Shown: positions 1,827 through 12,652 of the stretch, one piece after another | How positions within the stretch are numbered: position 1 is the first letter of the stretch | Layout: each line of letters begins with the position of its first letter | Assembly (NCBI GenBank): GCA_030619825.1 | Contig: JAUXAS010000021.1 | Span: forward strand, 1 to 12,668 | DNA from: Hadesarchaea archaeon | GTDB lineage: Archaea > Hadarchaeota > Hadarchaeia > Hadarchaeales > Hadarchaeaceae | Length of the DNA stretch: 12,668 bases | Direction: 5' to 3' | The notes under the pieces: generated by a model | Seen by the model: the letters and a program-made list of their open reading frames with translations, nothing else | The model's database searches: none | What the model was told of the DNA's origin: nothing | Made by a program: the position numbers and the translations under genes

Positions 1827-1999
1827 CGAAGACCCTTTAAAATTACCAACAGCCAACCGTTTAATCCTTAGGATGCAGTGGGCTGATTCCCTGCTCCATC
1901 GTCTTTATTTATGGCTCAACATTCCGCTTCAACATCCCAACTACAACGCGGCCAATCAAAAACCTCTGAACCCGTTGCGACCTGAAGTAATCCAGCAAG

Positions 2000-2013
2000 G
2001 GAAACTTTTTATA
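2000..2013 (+). promoter_or_regulatory. Putative archaeal BRE/TATA promoter for the abrB-RND unit
   Basis: GGAAAC-TTTTTATA located about 40 nt upstream of the SD-like AGGTGG (2051-2056). Confidence 0.5.
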
Positions 2014-2084
2014 CTTGTATAACATGTCAAATAAGTAAGAAATGATAAAAAGGTGGTCAGATAAAAAAGAAAGAAGTTGAGTGC

Positions 2085-2300
2085 ATGTTCTACGGCTCCG
2101 CCACCGTTGGAACGAAAGGGCAGATAGTAATACCTGCCAAGTTAAGGAAAGATTCCAATATTAAGCCCGGCGACACGTTGATATTCATCTGCAAGTCAGG
2201 ACGGGAAGGATTTGGGGTAATGAAACCGGAAGGGCTGTTACGTTTGCAGAAAGAGTTCGAAAGCTTGCAGAAGCAATTAGTCGGAAAAATTAAAAGATAG
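2085..2300 (+). CDS. AbrB/MazE/SpoVT-family DNA-binding protein
   Basis: TVGTKGQIVIPAKLRK...IKPGD swapped-hairpin signature; 71 aa. It may start at the in-frame ATA at 2061. Confidence 0.9.
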   Translation: MFYGSATVGTKGQIVIPAKLRKDSNIKPGDTLIFICKSGREGFGVMKPEGLLRLQKEFESLQKQLVGKIKR

Positions 2301-2380
2301 CTGAAACTCGAGTATGATCTATCCTGCGAGCCCTAAACGAAAGTTCGGAGATTTGACTGCGGTAGCATGGGGATATCTCA

Positions 2381-4699
2381 ATGATGGATAAAATAGCGAG
2401 AGCATGTGAAAAACGCCCGTTTGTTGTGATAGGTGTAATAGCCCTCATCACGGTCTTGATGCTTACCGGGATCCCAAAGATTACCACGGAAACCGAGATG
2501 AGAACATTCCTGCCCAAGGGATATCCATCTATCGAAGCCACGCTGGAGATTGAAAATAAGTTCGGCGGGATGCAGTACGAGTTTATTTTAATCAAATCCC
2601 AAAAAGTGACGAACGCAAACGTTGTAAGATCGTTGCTCGACCTGCAGCAAAAACTTGTCACAGAACCTACATTGGAAAACTATGTCATGGAGGTCGGGAG
2701 CTATTTGGATTTTCTGCTTCCATACATAATGGTGGACAGCCAGTTATTGCAGGATAACCAACTTGAGCTCACCATACAATCGCTCCTAGCGCAACCCCAA
2801 ATCAAAAACATGGTAGAAAATAAATCGATAACCCATGACCAAAAAATCTGTCTATTAAGTATAAGAGTGAATTCCAATCTAAAACAAAGTGAAGCAAGTG
2901 AAAAAACCGGGTATTTCGAAGATTTTGTGAAAAGTTATGCTTCCGAAAGCGGTGCTTTTGACGCTTCGATCACTGGTGGATACTCCATTTCTAGAGACAT
3001 GCAAAAAATGGTTGGTGGAGAAAGCTATATTTTGTTGCTAGCAGCGGTGATCTTTATTATCGTCGTTCTTGCTCTAGCTTTTCGCCACGCCAGTGATGTT
3101 GTGTCACCATTTGTGGTCATTGGATTGGCGATGGTTTGGGTAATGGGCATAATGGGTCATTTTGGCATTTCGTTCTCTACCGTGGCCGTCGCGATCTTGC
3201 CCCTTCTGCTGGGTATAACTATTGATTATGCTATCCATATGATCTATCGTTACAAAGAGGAAAGATCCAAGGGCTATGATGCGGGCAAGTCTGCAGTTTC
3301 GAGCATCAAAACCACGGGCACCGCAGTATTCCTCACAGCTGCGACGACGATGATAGGTTTTGGCGCGTGGTTGACTTCGGATCTTCCTCCTCTACGCGAT
3401 TTTGGTTTCCTTTCCATGTTGGGGATATTCCTCAGCTTTGTCTTTGTCGTGACTTTGTTGCCAGCATTTTGGGTCATTCGTGACAGGAAGAAAGGCACAG
3501 AAAGAGCCGCCAAAGTGCCAGGGTATGGGGCATCAAAAAAAGCCAAGTCGGCCATTGACCGAGGATTAATAAAAATAGCGATGGGGGCTGTACATCACTC
3601 GGGAAAGGTGGCAATAACTGCGGGGATAATCACCGTTATTGCCATACTGCTTGCAACTCAGACAACCACTGCCATATCGTTTGAAGAGTTCATGCCCGCG
3701 GGTGTTGAATCAGTTGAGACCAGTAATGAGATCGAAGAATACTTCGGCGGACAGGACCCTTCAAGTGCCGTTATGGTCCTCGTGGAAGGCGATATAACTG
3801 ACCCAGCTACCCTCGGAGCAATGATCCAGCTTGAACAGCAAACACTCTCCGATACTAGAAACACCAATATAACGAGTTCCTACAGCATTGCCGACTTAAT
3901 ACTGGTAACAAATAACGGGTCCCTGCCGGAGAACTCAGAAAACGCCAAAGCGATTCTTGGAATTCTCCGCCAGCAAATGCCTGAGAGAACCGATGTTTTA
4001 ATAACCTCTGACAACGGGGCGGCCACAATAATGTTTATGGGAACCGCTGAGACGGATGCCGATTTGAAACTAATAGCGGACATAGTCAGGACCAATGTCG
4101 ATCAAGTAGCCCCAAACACCCAAGCGGAATTTGCAGTTGGGGGTATGCCAGCAATTGCCGCTGACCTGCTGGGCAAAATATCAGAAAGCGCCATAACGAC
4201 AACCCTAATAGCATTTGTCCTATGTGCCTTGGTTTTATGCTTCATCTTCAGAAGCCCGGTACTTGGCCTTATTACCATGATTCCCGTTACCCTCGCATTA
4301 ATTTGGGAATTCGGCGCGCTTTATGTATTTGGCATCCCCCTAAACATAATGACGGTATTGATCTCAGCGCTCCTCATCGGAATCGGCATCGACTTTTCGA
4401 TCCACATCACCCATCGATATATGGAAGAGTGGAAAGACCGCCTACGCAAACCCGAAGAGTCTGTGGGTACATCGGTATTTCACGTTGGGAGGGCGATATT
4501 GGTGGCGGCTGCGAGCACTTGCGGTGCTTTCGGTATAATAATGCTCTCAGGGATGCCGATGTTAGGGATATTCGGCGGCATAATGGCATTGGTAATCCTA
4601 CTCTGCATGCTCGCCGCACTATTTGTCCTGCCATCTATACTCGTTGCGTACGCAAGACGAGCAGGACGGAAAAGATCGGTGTTGGGGCCCTCATTTTAG
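2381..4699 (+). CDS. RND-superfamily (MMPL/HAE3-like) membrane transporter
   Basis: 772 aa with two homologous halves, each with 1 TM, a large extracellular loop and 5 TM. Both halves carry a GxxxD motif (GITIDYAIH, GIGIDFSIH). Confidence 0.92.
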   Translation: MMDKIARACEKRPFVVIGVIALITVLMLTGIPKITTETEMRTFLPKGYPSIEATLEIENKFGGMQYEFILIKSQKVTNANVVRSLLDLQQKLVTEPTLENYVMEVGSYLDFLLPYIMVDSQLLQDNQLELTIQSLLAQPQIKNMVENKSITHDQKICLLSIRVNSNLKQSEASEKTGYFEDFVKSYASESGAFDASITGGYSISRDMQKMVGGESYILLLAAVIFIIVVLALAFRHASDVVSPFVVIGLAMVWVMGIMGHFGISFSTVAVAILPLLLGITIDYAIHMIYRYKEERSKGYDAGKSAVSSIKTTGTAVFLTAATTMIGFGAWLTSDLPPLRDFGFLSMLGIFLSFVFVVTLLPAFWVIRDRKKGTERAAKVPGYGASKKAKSAIDRGLIKIAMGAVHHSGKVAITAGIITVIAILLATQTTTAISFEEFMPAGVESVETSNEIEEYFGGQDPSSAVMVLVEGDITDPATLGAMIQLEQQTLSDTRNTNITSSYSIADLILVTNNGSLPENSENAKAILGILRQQMPERTDVLITSDNGAATIMFMGTAETDADLKLIADIVRTNVDQVAPNTQAEFAVGGMPAIAADLLGKISESAITTTLIAFVLCALVLCFIFRSPVLGLITMIPVTLALIWEFGALYVFGIPLNIMTVLISALLIGIGIDFSIHITHRYMEEWKDRLRKPEESVGTSVFHVGRAILVAAASTCGAFGIIMLSGMPMLGIFGGIMALVILLCMLAALFVLPSILVAYARRAGRKRSVLGPSF

Positions 4700-4826
4700 G
4701 CAAGGTTCGGTAATTTACAAATCCTCTTCCACTGTCATCCTGACTAAAGGGAAAATCATCCGAGAAACCGATTAGGCTAGAAATGTAACAAAAAATGCTC
4801 AAATTCTTATTTTATAGAAAGTTGAG

Positions 4827-4921
4827 TGGTGGGGCCGCCGGAATTTGAATCCGGGTCACCAGCACCCCATTCCAGCGCTCGCGCGAAGCTGGGAGGCTAG
4901 ACCAAGCTACCCCACGGCCCC
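4827..4921 (-). tRNA. tRNA-Pro(GGG) with a 17-nt intron at position 32/33 (intron 4870-4886); CCA encoded
   Basis: Acceptor GGGGCCG/CGGCCCC-A-CCA, T arm CCGGA-TTCAAAT-TCCGG, anticodon stem CCAGC/GCTGG. A complete bulge-helix-bulge fold yields the mature loop TT-GGG-GT. Confidence 0.92.
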
Positions 4922-4943: not shown

Positions 4944-6233
4944 TTATTTGGGCTTAGTGTAGCCCCACTTCTCGAGGGCGCCCCTGAGCTCCTTTCTCTT
5001 TTTGGCGTACTCATCGAGCGGAATTCCTTTCAGGGCAGCATCGATTGCCTGTCGAACCGCTGAAGCTCCAGCTCGTCCCCCTTGAGGATGCCCCCAGATG
5101 CCACCCCCAACTTGGATGACGGTGTCTTTTCCTAGCATGTCGATGATCTCGGGTATCAAACCAGGGTGCAGCCCGCCCGAGGTGACGGGGAAAACTGGCT
5201 TGATCCCATCCCACCCCTGGGCGAGGATGTGTTTTTTTCCCTTGATGTTTCGGCCCGTGATCGCCTCCTGCAGCGCCAGAACCTCCTCCCGCGGCGTCTC
5301 GAGCTTCCCTATCGCGGTGCCGATGTGGAGCTGGTCGACGCCAATCAAGCGGGCGACCTTCGCGACGGCCAGCATAGACATCCCATGCTCCCGCTTTCGG
5401 GTGAAGGCGGCGTGGAACGCGCGGTGAGCGTGAATCGCGAGTCCCAAGTCTTCGCACTCCTCGCGCAGCGATTGAATCTTCGCCCACCCCACAGTCAGGA
5501 TGTCGACCATCACGTACTCGCCACCTCGCTCCTTCACGAATTTCGCACGGCGGAGCATTTCCCGCGTCTCGGCTGTCACGTTGATCAAGTAGCTCTTTCG
5601 TTTCCCTGTCTCTCGCTCGGCTCGGTCCCGTAGCTTAAGCGACCGCGCCACCCTCCGCTCGAATTGGTTGAACTGCTGCCCGGAGAGGTTCTCGTCATCC
5701 TTGAGCAGATCGATGCCACCAACCCAGGCCTCGTAGCCAGCTTGGGCGTGCTCTTCGCTGCTCATCCCGACCTTAGGTTTCATCACGGTTGCGGTCAGCG
5801 GCCTATCCCTCACCTTGAAGAGCTTTCTGATGCCATCGATGCCAAACTGGGGGCCCCTAAATGATTTGATAAGCTTGGGTGACCACCGCACATCCTCAAG
5901 CCTGAGATTTTTTACTGCCTTCATCCCGAAGATATTGCCCGCGATCGAGCTGAGCACTTGGGGCATGTTTCCCGCCTCGAAGAGGTCAAAGGGGTAGGCC
6001 ACCCTCACCCATCGCCCTTTCATTTCGTAGGCCTTCGCCATGAGTCGCCGCTTTTCGGGCGTCATCGTCGTAAGGGTGGTCCAGGTGCCGATCGAGCTCT
6101 CCGAGGCCACGCGCCCCACGGCTTCTCGCATACTAATGCCGCTCGCAGGCTCAATTCTGAACAGGACGATCAAGTCCTCGCGCGTGGGCCTGTAGCTCGG
6201 GTCTACGAAATCTAAATACCATTCGGTCTTCAT
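4944..6233 (-). CDS. rbcL: Form III ribulose-1,5-bisphosphate carboxylase/oxygenase
   Basis: Catalytic set intact: ESSIGTW, GNIFG, KPKVG, GIDLLKDDE, HAHRAFH, loop-6 GTAIGKLE, SGGLHPG, GGGIWGHP. No small subunit nearby. The ATG at 6233 is likely (alternative GTG at 6251). Confidence 0.94.
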   Translation of the reverse strand: MKTEWYLDFVDPSYRPTREDLIVLFRIEPASGISMREAVGRVASESSIGTWTTLTTMTPEKRRLMAKAYEMKGRWVRVAYPFDLFEAGNMPQVLSSIAGNIFGMKAVKNLRLEDVRWSPKLIKSFRGPQFGIDGIRKLFKVRDRPLTATVMKPKVGMSSEEHAQAGYEAWVGGIDLLKDDENLSGQQFNQFERRVARSLKLRDRAERETGKRKSYLINVTAETREMLRRAKFVKERGGEYVMVDILTVGWAKIQSLREECEDLGLAIHAHRAFHAAFTRKREHGMSMLAVAKVARLIGVDQLHIGTAIGKLETPREEVLALQEAITGRNIKGKKHILAQGWDGIKPVFPVTSGGLHPGLIPEIIDMLGKDTVIQVGGGIWGHPQGGRAGASAVRQAIDAALKGIPLDEYAKKRKELRGALEKWGYTKPK

Positions 6234-6277
6234 GCTCTCGGACCAATTCACAATGGCTCTTCAAGTAAAAATACACG

Positions 6278-6875: not shown

Positions 6876-7306
6876 AACTTCGCCCCCAAGTGTTTGCTTA
6901 TGTCTCCTATCCTCATAAAGCGTCGTGTGCCCAGCCGTTCAAGGCTAGCTTCGGGAAGGGTTTGCATCTTCTTACCGACGAACTCAGGGGGGACTCCTAT
7001 ATGGACGCGCAATCGATCGTAGGCTCCCCGCCCGCGAGGCTTATCGAATGGTAGCATCCCCCTGACCGTCCGGCGTACGAGCTCTTCGGGGCGCTTGAGG
7101 TGGAACGGCCCCTTTCGGGGATTGGTTAGGTTTCTGATTTCGAGCCAAGCGTCGTAAGCGTCAAAGGTAGCTTTTTTTCTACCGGAAATCACTATCTGCT
7201 CTGCGTTCACCACGGTCACGCGCTCGCCCTCAAGCAAGCGTTTCGCCGCGAAGCTCGCGAGCCTCCCCAAGACCAGATCTTTCCCGTCGATAATCATGTT
7301 CCTCAC
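6872..7306 (-). CDS. rpl13: 50S ribosomal protein L13 (uL13)
   Basis: IIDGKDLVLGRLAS, VVNAEQIVISG, GPFHLKRP and VRGMLP motifs; GTGA overlap with the rpl18e stop. Confidence 0.96.
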   Translation of the reverse strand: MRNMIIDGKDLVLGRLASFAAKRLLEGERVTVVNAEQIVISGRKKATFDAYDAWLEIRNLTNPRKGPFHLKRPEELVRRTVRGMLPFDKPRGRGAYDRLRVHIGVPPEFVGKKMQTLPEASLERLGTRRFMRIGDISKHLGAKF

Positions 7307-7668
7307 TCCATCAGTTTGACTCCCTTGCCGCTCGGGTTTTGCTCGAACAACTGCTGGATTGTCAACGCGTTTCCGCCAGCGCCCACGATTTTTCGTCTAG
7401 CGGCACCCGAGAACTTGAAAGCAGCGATAGATACCGCGTGGTCTAGCTTGCCTGCTGCCAAGACCTTGCCGGGCACGATGATGGTGCTCCCCTCGCCCGA
7501 GTAGCGGTTCAGATGGCTAAGGTTGACTTCGGCCCGACTCCTTCTGGGCCGCTCGAGTCGCTCCGCTAGGTCGAGCCAGAGTTTTACCCCCTGCTTCTTG
7601 CCCCTTGCGCGAAGCTCTCGCACGAGCATCCGCAGCACGGGGTTCGTTGGTCCTGTCGGTCTTGGCAT
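7303..7668 (-). CDS. rpl18e: 50S ribosomal protein L18e (eL18)
   Basis: TNPVL, RPRRSRAEVNLSHL and VPGKVL motifs; SD AGGTG upstream; conserved position before rpl13. Confidence 0.95.
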   Translation of the reverse strand: MPRPTGPTNPVLRMLVRELRARGKKQGVKLWLDLAERLERPRRSRAEVNLSHLNRYSGEGSTIIVPGKVLAAGKLDHAVSIAAFKFSGAARRKIVGAGGNALTIQQLFEQNPSGKGVKLME

Positions 7669-7715
7669 CTCGACACCTTAACGGTCGACACACTTTCTAG
7701 CTTTCTTAGGATAAA

Positions 7716-7785
7716 ACCTATGGTGGCGCGGTATTAGGAGTTTGTACTTGGATTTGTACCCTCCAGAATACTTCCGGAAGAATCT
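7716..7785. repeat. Junction repeat 1: short tRNA-end remnant, hairpin GTATTAGGAG...CTCCAGAATAC and palindrome CTTCCGGAAG
   Basis: 7728-7744 is identical to 8698-8714 (17 bp); 7732-7785 aligns with 12477-12530 over about 54 bp with scattered mismatches. Confidence 0.8.
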
Positions 7786-7800
7786 GGTTAATTTCTCTTT

Positions 7801-8559
7801 TCACGATTTATGTGCTTTTACTTTTACACTTGTAATTTTTCCAACCAATGTGTCATCTAGTCCTGGTTCATAAAATGTGTTCTGAGAAACAATATTGACA
7901 TCTCTAAATCCTGCTCTTTTTATCGTATCTAAATACTCTTTTTTCTCTAACGCTCCGGCGATGCATCCAGCCCAGGCCTCAAAGTTCTTTCTAATGTCTT
8001 CTGGTAATTCACCTTCTGTAACTAAATCGGAAATCAAAATTCTTCCACCCGGTCTTAAAACTCTGTATGCTTCTTGATATGTCCGTAATTTATCTGGAGA
8101 AAGATTGATGATGCAGTTGCTAATAATTACATCAACCGAATTATCTTCAAGAGGCAAATTTTCAATTTCTCCAAGCCTAAATTCTACATTTTTATATCTA
8201 TTCTTTGCTGTTTCATTGGCTCTTTTAACCATTTCTTCCGACATATCAATTCCAATAACGTGGCCCTCTGATCCTACTTTATTTGCAGCCAAAAATACAT
8301 CAATTCCTGCACCTGCTCCCAGATCCAAGACTGTTTCTCCTTTTTTCAAGTCCGCTAATGCTGTTGGGTTGCCACACCCCAAACCCATGATAGCAGATTC
8401 TGGAATGTTCCCAAGTTCATCTTCAGAATAACCAATATTTTTCGCTTGTTCCATTACATCAATTCCACATGGGCCACAAGTAGGACAACAACTGGTATCT
8501 TCTTTAGCTATTTTTGAATATCTTTCCATTACAATTTTTTTAATTTTTTCTTCCTGCAT
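7801..8559 (-). CDS. arsM: Arsenite S-adenosylmethionine methyltransferase
   Basis: N-terminal SCCPTCGPCG, LGCGNP, SAM motif VLDLGAGAGID, ISNCIINL and WAGCIAGA, so the conserved As-binding Cys are present; SD GAGG. Confidence 0.92.
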   Translation of the reverse strand: MQEEKIKKIVMERYSKIAKEDTSCCPTCGPCGIDVMEQAKNIGYSEDELGNIPESAIMGLGCGNPTALADLKKGETVLDLGAGAGIDVFLAANKVGSEGHVIGIDMSEEMVKRANETAKNRYKNVEFRLGEIENLPLEDNSVDVIISNCIINLSPDKLRTYQEAYRVLRPGGRILISDLVTEGELPEDIRKNFEAWAGCIAGALEKKEYLDTIKRAGFRDVNIVSQNTFYEPGLDDTLVGKITSVKVKAHKS

Positions 8560-8610
8560 TTTTTAACCTCTATCTTTTCCTTTCAGATATATGTGCGCCA
8601 GCCATTTTTG

Positions 8611-8739
8611 ACCTATGGTGCGGGGGACAGGATTTAAGCACCAATTTACTAGTAAAAATCTCTCTAAAACAGCTGATCTGCTTCAACAAGCCTGGGTGCG
8701 GTATTAGGAGTTTGAACCGACCCCTGAAGTGAGTTAGCT
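8611..8739. repeat. Junction repeat 2: 21-bp tRNA-Leu 3'-end copy (att-like) plus two further shared motifs
   Basis: 8614-8634 = 12563-12583; 8655-8683 matches 12524-12553 (25/30 by eye); 8698-8714 = 7728-7744. Confidence 0.85.
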
Positions 8740-8952
8740 TTCCAGCAGCACGCATTGCATGGGAGTATTGTTAAGATTCGCCGAAAGTCTTGTGGCAGTC
8801 TTCCTCCCTTAGCTCAGAGGAGGGGTAGAGAGTTGACAAATTGGCAATCTCTCGAGGAAGGGTGGCTGGATCCAGCTCGGCAAGCTGATCCGAGAGCTAC
8901 CGAGGCTAGATCCCATTTTCTGAACTGATAGTAGTCTTGAAGCATTTTTTTC

Positions 8953-11751
8953 TTACACTTCTATGCTGTCGCTTGTTTCCTCGTTTGCCTCTAAGTCATA
9001 TATCCACCCTTCTAGTACAACATTATCCACCGTGAAGGTGAATTCTCCACTAGCATTCTTGACGTATTTGGTTTCGAATGTTACTCGCCCATTAACATCG
9101 GTTACTCCAGAAACGTCGCCACTTCTAAGCCCACCCCAGTGACCGTATACTTTCGCACCTTCAACTGGGTTGTTGTCAGCATCGACGATAGTCACCGTTG
9201 CTATGGCATTCGTCCATGCGTTTGGTCCCCTATATATGGTTTCCTTTGACATATCGATGCTGGCAATATGCAACTTGGGCATCGTGGCCTCAACTGTTCC
9301 GGTCCATGCTTCGATCACTTGCCATGCAGCAGGAGCTTCAACTGTCCCGGTCCATGTTTCGATCAGCTGCCATTCGGCGATTGGGGCTTCTATCGTTCCA
9401 GTCCATGTCTCGATTAGCTGCCATGCAGCTGGGGCTTCGACCGTGCCCGTCCAGCCTTCAACTATTTGCCAAGCAGCTGGTGCCTCAACTGTTCCAGTCC
9501 ATGTCTCGATCAGCTGCCATTCAGCAGGGGCTTGGACCGTGCCTGTCCAAGTCTCGATCAGCCGCCACATAACCGGGGCTTTGATGGTTCCAGTCCAGGT
9601 CTCGATCGCCTGCCACTGAGCTGGAGCATTAACGGTTCCGGTCCATGTTTCTATTAGACTCCATTGAGCCGGAGCGCTAACGGTTCCTGTCCAGGTTTCT
9701 ACGACTTGCCATGCAGCTGAAGCTTGGATCGTGCCAGTCCATGTTTCAACTACCTGCCACGCAGCTGGGGCTTCGACCGTGCCCGCCCAGGTTTCGATGA
9801 GGTTCCATTGAGCAGGTGGGGCAGGGATTATCTCGAGCACCCAGGTGTTCTCCGACCAGTTGTCGCCCGCAGCGTTGTACGCACATACCTTCCACCAGTA
9901 GTTGTCCGGAGCCAGCCCGGGCAAGGGGACGTCGTAGTAGTTCTCGGTTATGAGCGTGACGTCGATCACGTTCTCGCCATCCGCGAAGTTGGGATCGTTG
10001 TCGACTACCAAGCGATGGTTCTCCGCGTTCGAGCCCTTGATCCATTCGAATCGTGGGGTGTTATCGTTGGTAATCGTTCCATCCGCTGGTGAATAAAGCG
10101 CGGGTTGGCCTGGAGGTTCTATGCCTAGCCCAGCGCTAATATCAAAGAAATAATTGCCAGACCCGGAGTAGGAGTAGACCTCAACCGTATAGGTCCCCAA
10201 CTTGGTGATGGACACACTTATTGTTTCCTGTCTCCTCACTCCGAGTGATGACGCAATTTTATTTCCATTTGGATCGTATAGATACAGATCAAAGTCCGGG
10301 TCAGTTTTCACCGGAGTTACCACTTTCCAGTCTGGTATGATTAAGGTTATTGCAATTGGGTAATTTGTATCGGTGACCTCGTACGGCCAGAGGTCGCTTT
10401 CCCCTTTGCCCCCTAAACTGTCTTCTTTATATTCATGCGCAGGGACCACAGGGCCGGTTCCCACAAAGTTCCCAGCAGTTTTGACGGCTTCGTACGAGTC
10501 TAATCGTCCTGCACCGTAGTCAATATCCTTGCCTGTATTATCCCAAGAAGAACCCCAATCTACAGCAGTACTCATGATGATGCTCTTAATGTCATTTGGG
10601 TGGTTATCAATCAGACCTGTGTTTGCATGTAACATGAGGGCTACTGTGCCAGACACAAATGGCGTTGACATACTTGTTCCACTCTTGCTCACATACCCGT
10701 TAGTGGACCCAGCCTCTGCTGCTGTCAGTGAAACTCCAGGTCCCACAACATCGGGCTTAATCCTCTCATCGGCTGTGGGGCCCCTACTAGAAAAGCTTGC
10801 TAAGTAGAAGCCGAGTTCACCCACATCAGCCATCGCACCCACGGTGATAGCATTCTCCGCAGCCGCGGGAGAGCCTATTGAGTATTTCTTAGGGCCTTCA
10901 TTTCCAGCTGCCACAACGGTTATAATCCCATTCTCAACAGCCTTGTTCACCAAAGTTGACGTGGAGTCTGTACCGTCAGAGCTTCCACTTATCCCTATGC
11001 TCATGCTGAGGACTTCGATGCCAAATTTTTCCTTGTTGTTGATGACCCATTGAATCCCTGCGTTTACATCGCTGATTGTCCCGCTACCCGTCTTGGCTAT
11101 TACTTTTACGCCCACTAGGGCTGCCCCTGGCGCAACACCTGTGTAAACTGAGTTGCCTTCACCAGTTCCCGCTGCGATTGAAGATACATGGGTTCCGTGA
11201 CCATGATCATCATATGGTTCTAGCTTACCGTTGACGAAATCCACCCATCCAATAACCTTACCCTCATCTAAATCGAAATGTGTCACGTCAATACCCGTAT
11301 CTATAATGGCAATGACGATATCATTCTCCGTGTAAATTGGCCATCCATTTTCTGTTGTCAGTCCGTCTAGATCTCCGTCAACGTCAAAATCGTAGACGGC
11401 GTTATCAACGCCAAACCAAACCGTGGCGGAGCCCAGCATGATATGGACAATTTTCTCGTCGTATTCAACTCCCTTGACAAATGGAATCTTGTCAAGAGCC
11501 TTTATTTGCCCCCCAGTTAAAGTAGCCGCGATACCAGGCAGATTTGGATACTCATATTTAACGTAAAATAGCCCAATTTTTTCAGTCACCTGAGCGATCC
11601 CAGCGGCTGGAGTTACACCATCGAAAATGATAATGACCCGAATCTCGTCAGTTGTTTCCGCCCGAACTGCCGTTATCGGCAGGGTGCCTATGAAAATACA
11701 TACGAAAATAATTGATGTGACAACCGAAGACTTCTTCGAATTAAAGTCCAT
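8953..11751 (-). CDS. Secreted S8 (subtilisin-like) serine protease with I9-like propeptide, PPC-like domain, Fn3/Ig-like domain, 11 Trp-rich repeats and a C-terminal Ig-like domain
   Basis: Signal peptide ending AVRA; catalytic IIDTG, HGHGTHV, AAGN (oxyanion) and GTSMS; DFDLYLYDPNG (PPC-like). Start is ATG 11751 or GTG 11754. Confidence 0.93.
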   Translation of the reverse strand: MDFNSKKSSVVTSIIFVCIFIGTLPITAVRAETTDEIRVIIIFDGVTPAAGIAQVTEKIGLFYVKYEYPNLPGIAATLTGGQIKALDKIPFVKGVEYDEKIVHIMLGSATVWFGVDNAVYDFDVDGDLDGLTTENGWPIYTENDIVIAIIDTGIDVTHFDLDEGKVIGWVDFVNGKLEPYDDHGHGTHVSSIAAGTGEGNSVYTGVAPGAALVGVKVIAKTGSGTISDVNAGIQWVINNKEKFGIEVLSMSIGISGSSDGTDSTSTLVNKAVENGIITVVAAGNEGPKKYSIGSPAAAENAITVGAMADVGELGFYLASFSSRGPTADERIKPDVVGPGVSLTAAEAGSTNGYVSKSGTSMSTPFVSGTVALMLHANTGLIDNHPNDIKSIIMSTAVDWGSSWDNTGKDIDYGAGRLDSYEAVKTAGNFVGTGPVVPAHEYKEDSLGGKGESDLWPYEVTDTNYPIAITLIIPDWKVVTPVKTDPDFDLYLYDPNGNKIASSLGVRRQETISVSITKLGTYTVEVYSYSGSGNYFFDISAGLGIEPPGQPALYSPADGTITNDNTPRFEWIKGSNAENHRLVVDNDPNFADGENVIDVTLITENYYDVPLPGLAPDNYWWKVCAYNAAGDNWSENTWVLEIIPAPPAQWNLIETWAGTVEAPAAWQVVETWTGTIQASAAWQVVETWTGTVSAPAQWSLIETWTGTVNAPAQWQAIETWTGTIKAPVMWRLIETWTGTVQAPAEWQLIETWTGTVEAPAAWQIVEGWTGTVEAPAAWQLIETWTGTIEAPIAEWQLIETWTGTVEAPAAWQVIEAWTGTVEATMPKLHIASIDMSKETIYRGPNAWTNAIATVTIVDADNNPVEGAKVYGHWGGLRSGDVSGVTDVNGRVTFETKYVKNASGEFTFTVDNVVLEGWIYDLEANEETSDSIEV
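9289..9819 (-). repeat. Intragenic tandem repeat, 11 x 48 bp (16 aa, consensus APAxWQLIETWTGTVE; one unit is 17 aa)
   Basis: Counted directly in the translated ORF. Confidence 0.95.
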
Positions 11752-11845
11752 CACATTATCACATCAACCTTTGATAACATACTCCCAAGCACGCGATAAA
11801 GCGTCTGCGAGAGAAGGGATAAGCGTAGGGAGTTTTTCGCTGCGC

Positions 11846-11944
11846 CTATAGACCTAGTAATGCTTCTAACGTCTTTACAGCTTGATCTACTGGAATACCC
11901 GCCGCTTGTAGTCCCTTCAAAATCGCCAAAGCTGCCTCCACCAT
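11846..11944 (-). CDS. Unannotated 32-aa peptide MVEAALAILKGLQAAGIPVDQAVKTLEALLGL
   Basis: ATG preceded by SD GAGGTG (11951-11956) and TATA-like TTATAAAA (about 11980-11987); ends in TAG; same strand as, and 95 nt upstream of, the subtilase. Confidence 0.62.
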   Translation of the reverse strand: MVEAALAILKGLQAAGIPVDQAVKTLEALLGL

Positions 11945-12032
11945 TATTCCCACCTCGTTTGAACTTTATACGCCATTTATTTTATAACTTGCTATCAGGG
12001 GTTTTATCTTTCAAAAGTCGAAAATCCGTAAA

Positions 12033-12134
12033 TTTATCTATGACTCGCTTTAGCTAAAATAACATCTATTTGGGGATTATCTTTGATTTAAGGGTCATAT
12101 ATAAAATTTGGGCAATTATAGAGTCATAGATAAA
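12033..12134. promoter_or_regulatory. Three copies of a 14-bp motif GRGTCATAKATAAA (one inverted); candidate protein-binding sites
   Basis: TTTATCTATGACTC (12033-12046) is the exact reverse complement of GAGTCATAGATAAA (12121-12134); GGGTCATATATAAA (12092-12105) matches 12/14. Confidence 0.5.
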
Positions 12135-12451
12135 AATTTAAGGTCTAATAGCCTCCAAATTTGCCAAAAGAGTTAAATGGGGTTTTAAAATTAATTGCTT
12201 GGAGGGAAAAAATGGGAAGGCCTCCGGTGTCTGGAACCGAAAGACTCTCGAAGATCAAGCTGTCGCTCGAAAGAGATCCCCAGTCCAGAACGGAGGCGTG
12301 ACCCGCAAAGTTTTTATGAGACTAAGTTATTTAAAAACAATACTAGGAATGTTATTTGGAATAATTCTTTCTAAACAAAAAATGCAAGATTTGTAGAAAT
12401 AGTGCTTACCCCATTAGAGCTTTCCCAAAGATATCTCGACTCAACTTTCCC

Positions 12452-12562
12452 AACCTAATTCTAACGTCCGCTGCCATATTAGGAGTTTTAGATTTAGGTT
12501 TGTACCCTCCTGAATCTTTCCGGAAAATCTCCTCTCAAACCGACGATCTGCTTTAGAATGAG
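12452..12562. repeat. Junction repeat 3, adjoining the tRNA-Leu 3' end
   Basis: Contains the motifs shared with 7732-7785 and 8655-8683, hairpin ATTAGGAG...CTCCTGAAT, palindrome TTTCCGGAAA and an inverted repeat at 12452-12464/12488-12500. Confidence 0.8.
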
Positions 12563-12564
12563 TA

Positions 12565-12652
12565 TGGTGCGGGGGACAGGATTCGAACCTGCGAACCCCT
12601 TCGGGACCAGACCCTAAATCTGGCGCCTTTGACCTGACTTGGCTACCCCCGC
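12565..12652 (-). tRNA. tRNA-Leu(TAG), CCA encoded
   Basis: Acceptor GCGGGGG/CCCCCGC-A-CCA; anticodon arm CCAGA-TTTAGGG-TCTGG; long variable arm CCC-GAA-GGG; T arm GCAGG-TTCGAAT-CCTGT; 88 nt. Confidence 0.97.

Follow-up and report, generated by a model that had tools for sequence, protein, structure and literature searches.

Tandem cassette-like units bounded by copies of a tRNA-derived site between tRNA-Leu(TAG) and rpl18e in a Hadesarchaea archaeon

What are the repeats that separate the accessory genes between a tRNA-Leu(TAG) gene and the ribosomal protein gene rpl18e in a Hadesarchaea archaeon, and how could those genes have come to lie there? The stretch analyzed (the window) is an entire contig of 12,668 bp (JAUXAS010000021.1; C79 of source genome G000, which is 0.99 Mb and 89% complete), and its minus strand carries, in order, tRNA-Leu(TAG) (12652-12565), a subtilase gene (11754-8953), the arsenite methyltransferase gene arsM (8559-7801), and then rpl18e with the ribosomal operon. 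A preliminary description of this DNA read three repeats in the interval as attC-like hairpins of an integron-type cassette array lacking an integrase. Based on a comparison of 66 Hadarchaeota genomes, G000 included (G-numbers; individual loci have L-numbers), each of the three repeats is a copy of a recombination site that originated from the tail of a tRNA, and not an integron hairpin. We consider it probable that the interval is a tandem row of att-bounded cassettes at a tRNA end, resembling cis-mobilizable elements (CIMEs), and that a tyrosine integrase supplied in trans moves them.

The starting point of the preliminary description was the octamer ATTAGGAG, which does occur on the plus strand at 7733, 8703, and 12478 (three occurrences, where 0.36 would be expected; of 200 shuffles, one had as many), with partial complements 20, 10, and 21 nt after the respective words, as reported. 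The repeat is far longer than this word: junctions 1 and 3 (J1 and J3) match over 39 nt, and the sequence model of the site (R1) spans ~50 nt. ATTAGGAG is one variant within this ~50-bp site, here called the P end, which ends in the core CCGCACCA; the octamer is present in just 21 of 90 distinct sites. Conservation in the P end covers a pair of T-loop-like words, spaced 12 bp apart, and after them ATA and CCGCACCA. By its sequence, the P end is an in-register derivative of a tRNA T-arm and acceptor end, and its second T-loop-like word, 12 bp upstream, is plausibly an extra predicted integrase-binding site. A fourth junction, absent from the preliminary description, duplicates 21 bp of the tRNA 3' end without a mismatch (8614-8634, identical to 12563-12583). 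The tRNA and its displaced 3' fragments (the 21-bp repeat, P ends, and the tRNA-copying ends termed T1) are in direct orientation.

Copies of CCGCACCA form the joints of four units within the interval: an empty unit of 96 bp, a subtilase segment of 3.8 kb, an empty unit of 78 bp, and an arsM unit of 892 bp, all described here in minus-strand order. tRNA-Leu(TAG) (12565-12652; ARAGORN, Rfam), which lies beside junction 3 as had been claimed, anchors the array, and its last 8 nt (12565-12572) constitute the common core. The 96-bp unit at junction 3 (12469-12564; model R1, E 5e-6) has no cargo and comprises left arm L1 and a P end (12477-12522), the core of which (12469-12476) has decayed; its first ~50 nt are identical to an empty unit in G003. 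The subtilase segment opens with a non-coding, AT-rich leader (11755-12468; 39% GC in an open reading frame (ORF) and GC survey), followed by a gene (8953-11754) for a secreted-type S8 protease of 933 aa with a PPC domain, 16-aa repeats, and a weak Ig-like C-terminus (Pfam), which bears out the earlier subtilase call. It ends at junction 2a (8694-8718; R1, E 2.6e-6), a truncated P end whose core (8694-8701) has one mismatch. Next is the 78-bp unit without cargo (8616-8693), consisting of L1 and a T1 end that closes with a copy of the tRNA-Leu(TAG) 3' end; the 21-bp direct repeat at junction 2b (8614-8634) is a host-derived, attR-like tRNA fragment, based on the repeat search and the locus-specific nature of T1 ends. 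The arsM cassette (7724-8615; 37% GC), which recurs at other loci and in other genera, contains left arm L2 (about 8594-8615), arsM (7801-8559; 252 aa), and the full P end of junction 1 (7724-7776; R1, E 5.9e-15), with one mismatch in its core (7724-7731). The arsM identification was also correct, as the protein passes the NCBIfam arsenite methyltransferase cut-off (NF008823, 328 bits; cut-off 263). Beyond the array are the original host flank (B'; 7669-7723), which adjoins the tRNA directly in empty-site relatives, and rpl18e (7303-7668), the first host gene. GC content is 37% in the arsM unit, 48% in the subtilase segment, and 58% in neighboring host genes. Contigs of an independent study, no single one of which covers the whole stretch, extend across the tRNA/J3 region as well as the rpl18e/J1 core, and are evidence against mis-assembly at those two ends. 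ORF and Pfam annotation of the window revealed no integrase or transfer genes inside the units, Rfam matches in the window were to tRNAs only, and a promoter and terminator scan gave results at chance level.

One of the two readings offered in the preliminary description was a degenerate integron, or cluster of attC sites lacking integron-integrase (CALIN), in which an IntI encoded elsewhere would recombine the junctions as single-stranded attC hairpins. Single-gene cassettes in a row are integron-like in function, integrons have been reported in 3-4% of Hadarchaeota genomes in the available text of one survey (PMC9668308), and a true IntI exceeds the cut-off in 2 of the 66 genomes (G049 and G052); both of these lack the P site. 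In an alignment of 25 copies of the site (20 chosen by pattern and five added by hand), 62.5% of 200 cells in the proposed helix were paired, which equals the shuffled mean (314 of 500 shuffles were as high), and a two-sided change was found in one of eight helix pairs. The helix did surpass partners slid by -1 to -3, and barely those at +1 (58%), as would be expected of a structure drawn from a member of the alignment. The consensus fold (-2.4 kcal/mol) has a different structure from the proposed hairpin, and z-scores from single-stranded DNA folding lay between -0.15 and -1.15 across the six junction strands and were +0.35/+0.49 for a perfect copy. The minimum-energy fold of the J1 plus strand roughly pairs the proposed arms; the centroid drops them, and 85 of 200 shuffles fold equally well. 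The claimed hairpins therefore show neither covariation nor folding beyond that of shuffled sequence, and with the lack of R-box pairs the attC model was rejected. R boxes have the consensus RYYYAAC ... GTTRRRY; the words GTTAGCT (8733) and TTCTAAC (12459) are located where the preliminary description placed them and fit neither half, and an R-box pair surrounds none of the 90 distinct sites (shuffled mean 1.0), the three junctions among them. The cargo is co-oriented within the window, as noted earlier (two of two genes on the minus strand), a pattern that does not extend across the family, in which 31 of 60 distinct ORFs are on the tRNA strand and 29 on the opposite strand. Nor are the sites consistently downstream of genes, as junction 3 lies upstream of the subtilase gene and follows a tRNA instead. 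The best IntI match in G000 reaches 58 bits against a cut-off of 265. A combined R-box and fold scan detected nothing in the window, but nothing in two short IntI positive-control loci either, and with its sensitivity not shown it was not counted. Fold, R-box, orientation, and IntI evidence all oppose the integron branch, which we regard as very improbable. The two integron integrases above the TIGR02249 cut-off are at L265 (G049, C40) and L266 (G052, C53), and one has an internal stop. G000 itself has an isolated, sub-threshold C-terminal fragment of a tyrosine recombinase (C64, 40631-40813; 54 aa, 48% to Hadarchaeota IntI) between a low-GC methyltransferase gene and an AbrB-PIN pair.

Relatives of G000 provide both empty and filled versions of the locus. 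Among 14 congeneric genomes, the interval between tRNA-Leu(TAG) and rpl18e is empty in eight (G001, G004, G006, G007, G008, G009, G010, and G011, the last so counted although a contig edge cuts its tRNA), with the host flank and rpl18e directly after the tRNA, and filled in six. The filled alleles comprise one 95-bp unit without cargo and five cargo loads of 0.9-18 kb: G005 has the arsM unit only, and other cargo occupies ~2.7 kb in G013, ~3.1 kb in G012, and ~18 kb in G002. The cargo-free allele is that of G003, whose rpl18e protein is 100% identical to that of G000; the left half of its insert corresponds to J3 and the right half to J1, and the insert is flanked by a clean 8-bp duplication. 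The invariant content that, by the terms of the preliminary description, would count against a cassette array was thus not found.

The P end recurs within G000 and in other genomes of the phylum. Model R1 detected it 15 times in G000 and one or more times in 21 of the 66 genomes, representing eight of 20 genera and 12 of 13 congeners. A 40-nt pattern (up to three mismatches) matched 13 of 46 genomes of the family, with no match for the reversed control, and the exact pattern was found in 49 metagenome stretches (several of them redundant) and no viral contigs; all 14 named GTDB records with the exact site pattern are titled Hadarchaeota or Hadesarchaea. We found no published description of the P-end site in Hadarchaeota in the searched literature, which largely excluded subscription papers.

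When junctions are sorted at CCGCACCA, the left types are a whole tRNA, P, T1, T2, T3, and a tRNA half with integrase, and the right side is one of the arm classes L1-L5 or the host flank. Left types and right arms combine freely, and P precedes all six right arms (the right side is unclassified at 35 of 68 P junctions). In every unit, the left arm is short and conserved, and the right end mimics the T-arm and acceptor end of a tRNA. The 3'-terminal sequence of T1 ends is that of the tRNA anchoring the respective locus (TAG, CAG, or GAG), and L245 has a fusion of one P arm with a perfect T-arm end of a tRNA; both observations locate the crossovers within the stretch from T-loop to CCA. The 68 distinct units from core to core comprise 19 without cargo (78-127 bp), some of them in tandem, and 49 longer ones; a single ORF of at least 100 aa is present in 34 of the longer units, some of which are composites in which weak internal cores were missed. 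Cargo of other arrays, labeled by eye from translations, includes an ATP-cone protein and transporter-, toxin-antitoxin-, and restriction-like genes. The anchors are tRNA-Leu (TAG, CAG, GAG, and CAA), tRNA-Gly(GCC), and an intron-bearing tRNA that, read by eye, is probably Phe(GAA). Of 48 tRNA-like ends in CCGCACCA, 29 are followed by arms L1-L5, as against none of 36 other ends; this count is biased by the choice of loci by site, and three of the 29 are att copies rather than whole genes. One array (L105) has about seven junctions in 7 kb. The Phe(GAA)-like tRNA that anchors cassettes at L245 (6570-6691) and in G000 (C3, 4076-4201) has two introns, the sequences of which differ between genomes. 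Between the subtilase stop codon and J2, 99 bp of non-coding sequence (8761-8859) are 91% identical to G000 C64 53936-54034, which lies within a cassette of the tRNA-Leu(CAG) array, and also occur in L140; such matching stretches suggest cassette pieces that may have been patched together.

The arsM unit occupies different sites with the same left boundary, placed directly at different tRNAs (TAG and GAG). A copy on C14 of G000 is 89% identical over 915 bp; others immediately follow tRNA-Leu in G005 and L139 and come after tRNA-Leu(GAG) in G047 (88%, P end lost), and one is present in G056 (85%), so that with metagenome loci the unit is shared at 85-89% DNA identity. The rpl13 genes of G047 and G056 are 68-71% identical, compared with 85-89% for the unit; therefore, these identities indicate that the arsM cassette was transferred between genera as a whole unit. 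The 65 other genomes yielded only short C-terminal matches to the subtilase and no counterpart of its leader or catalytic region. The subtilase gene also contains about 11 tandem 16-aa Trp-rich repeats (9286-9849; 48-nt period), outside all four of its Pfam matches. The same repeat is encoded on G000 contigs C76, C63, C64, and C33 and in L132, and on this basis is apparently a lineage-wide surface-protein repeat.

Could such arrays be passive scars, namely the leftovers of large integrative elements that decayed in place and were reshuffled by host homologous recombination, with no cassette ever being an enzyme substrate? C-terminal integrase fragments are repeated near tRNAs in many genomes, breakpoints between cargo and arm vary inside units, near-complete genomes with sites have no integrase match, and half of the window's cores are decayed. 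The G003 allele in particular looks like a J3 x J1 crossover within the arms, of the kind that ordinary homologous recombination would produce. Against this, G000, G003, and G048, the last of another genus (rpl13 68% identical in DNA), share a 40-nt P end without a single difference, and the left boundary of the arsM unit is constant at TAG and GAG tRNAs, where ordinary homologous recombination would need more than the 8-bp match. We therefore judge passive scars to be unlikely. For the cassettes moved in trans, we propose that double-stranded, site-specific recombination by a tyrosine integrase would take place in the stretch from T-loop to CCA, that units would be excised as circles and inserted at the tRNA or at internal junctions while the tRNA stays intact, and that the integrase would be supplied by transient elements; homologous or illegitimate recombination between repeated arms could add or remove cargo and yield empty units.

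There is no recombinase gene in the window array, and none of five tyrosine-recombinase matches elsewhere in G000 is next to a P end; with no integrase in the array and none tied to the P end, the enzyme is inferred to act in trans. A candidate family is suggested by L133, at which a 305-aa tyrosine recombinase, the N-terminus of which is read from the antisense of a tRNA-Leu(GAG) half, immediately precedes an array containing an arsM unit. Its layout is that of SSV-type integrases, with PF16795 at cut-off level. This family (910 homologs) is represented in 22 of the 66 genomes, often by fragments, and in G000 solely by a 34-aa C-terminal fragment on C64, within the tRNA-Leu(CAG) array. The window contains no int(C), and its int(N)-like frame (12557-12617) is merely tRNA antisense. 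Within the window, the att sequence held in common measures 8 bp for P and 19-21 bp for T1, whereas at L133 and L060 it measures 40-50 bp and reaches the anticodon arm; cleavage by SSV-type integrases has been reported, or extrapolated, to occur at tRNA loops, for SSV1 at the anticodon loop, in the available part of PMC8371274. Should the cassettes be moved as proposed, there is about an even chance that the enzyme belongs to the SSV-type, tRNA-overlapping family, a somewhat smaller one that it is another tyrosine integrase, and little likelihood that it is something other than a tyrosine integrase. Two further recombinases were considered and rejected as candidates: a 323-aa integrase next to tRNA-Leu(GAG) in G009 (close matches in 2 of 66 genomes, none in G000) and the L122 recombinase (none of five genomes). 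The idea that a P unit supplies the first codons of a variant integrase was likewise discarded: some of its frames are suggestive by eye, but no small unit matched 120 homologs. The last ~38 codons of the SSV-type integrase are repeated near tRNA-Ser and tRNA-Ala (L246-L249; G009, G001, and G004), far more commonly than whole genes.

Several results weigh against a mobile cassette system driven by such an enzyme. No enzyme is tied to the P end, and P ends share just 8 bp with the tRNA, whereas the SSV-type att sites described in the available parts of PMC7253208 and PMC8371274 are 40-50 bp long and reach the anticodon arm (8-21 bp for the common core in Hadarchaeota). Translations of P units gave no match to 120 members of the SSV-type family, and PF00589 had no match in site-bearing G002 (94% complete, three contigs) or G020 (95%). 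Integrase and site also differ in distribution, with the integrase in four of nine genomes and the site in none of nine in family f4. Free elements were absent from four viral-contig pattern scans, one protein scan, and the phage and plasmid collections searched, and no excised-circle joint was among the joints listed for four contig sets, which consist of contigs only. The subtilase segment may now be immobile, since both flanking P cores are decayed. Contig joints at 8718-12497 and 8658-12563 were not counted as deletions, as their sides are short and other repeat copies could yield them, and joints that "go back" were rejected as circles, the sequence between their ends not being known. G002 has not even a XerA-like gene, and several more near-complete Hadarchaeota also have no PF00589 match.

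An enzyme of another class (casposase, serine recombinase, IS110, HUH/REP-like, or reverse transcriptase) would make the 8-bp tRNA end a target-site duplication. The clean 8-bp duplication around the G003 insert would fit this, the cargo-free 80-127-bp units in tandem look like miniature inverted-repeat transposable elements, and tandem arrays are known for casposons, according to the available text of PMC6563490. These candidate enzymes are not consistently present in five site-bearing genomes: resolvase, IS110, and reverse transcriptase were found in none of the five, Y1 transposase in two, and full-length Cas1 in one, with additional fragments in G000. No terminal inverted repeats, and no long inverted repeat, were seen by eye at unit ends, and T1 ends with 19-21 bp of the local tRNA fit attR rather than a fixed duplication. 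Insertion by a non-tyrosine enzyme is accordingly improbable in our estimation. Unlike casposons, the window array has no Cas1 gene and no long terminal inverted repeats.

Among known systems, the closest resemblance is to the CIMEs and tandem accretion of Streptococcus integrative and conjugative or mobilizable elements, as described in the available text of PMC5704250, which also lack integration genes, retain attL and attR, are stacked at a tRNA 3' end, and have chimeric internal att sites. The Hadarchaeota arrays differ in being archaeal, in units that are mostly single-gene or empty (78-127 bp), and in sharing one derived P end over eight genera and about six tRNA species by way of an 8-bp core; the window contains no mobilizing helper, with no search aimed at conjugation genes. 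As in the "suicidal" SSV-type integrases of SSV1, pTN3, and pT26-2 (PMC7253208 and PMC8371274, in part), the N-terminus of Hadarchaeota integrases contains the tRNA 3' half in antisense, att copies and integrase fragments cluster at tRNAs, and one integrase lies within a P-site array; tandem insertion was not seen in the Thermococcales and Archaeoglobales set of those reports, in contrast to the long Hadarchaeota arrays. Islander tDNA islands likewise have a tRNA and a displaced 3' fragment at their ends and a T-stem-region crossover, but Islander (PMC4383910) demands an integrase per island and a length of at least 2 kb and found only four tandems of three or more, whereas Hadarchaeota units are mostly under 2 kb and without integrase, and L105 alone has its seven or so junctions. 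Att sites down to 8 bp are known in archaea from short-att thaumarchaeal elements (PMC6563490, in part). Integrons and CALINs, as portrayed in the text available of PMC9668308, share the row of small exchangeable gene cassettes and the recombinase outside the array, and differ from Hadarchaeota sites, which have no attC fold or R boxes, are tRNA-derived, have cargo of mixed orientation, and show no link to IntI. The other reading in the preliminary description, with a tRNA-Leu landing site, and an integrase-less cassette array there are supported by the many copies, variable content, empty sites, and relocation; its "undescribed" class resembles known tandem tRNA islands and CIMEs, and its recombinase is one that we infer only. 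Tandem att-bounded islands are already known, and what is new here is the P end common across genera, the 8-bp core of several tRNAs, the empty cassettes, and the cross-genus arsM unit.

It is conceivable, if rather doubtful, that this is a living, phylum-level analog of the integron, in which the P end and empty cassettes would capture genes, a trans-acting tyrosine integrase with an 8-bp core would plug them into about six CCGCACCA-ending tRNAs or into each other, and the pool would be shared across genera. The arrays show an uncultured lineage of small-genome, deep-subsurface archaea gaining and trading single accessory genes without an integron. Such arrays would escape island-finding programs that insist on an integrase and a 2-kb minimum, and att copies at tRNA ends can pass for attC sites. 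An integrase using an 8-bp tRNA-terminal core at several tRNAs would, if real, be a useful tool and a new type of specificity.

Elsewhere in the window, an intron-containing tRNA-Pro (4827-4921, minus strand) was found by Rfam and intron-aware ARAGORN and missed by the default tRNA scan. Between nad genes and the 3' end of this tRNA, the 1900-4800 region contains an AbrB/MazE-type regulator and a 772-aa MMPL/RND gene (47% GC), possibly another tRNA-linked insertion. Beside the ribosomal operon, a 435-aa ORF (4944-6251, minus strand) encodes what we take, from its motifs, to be a RuBisCO-like large subunit.

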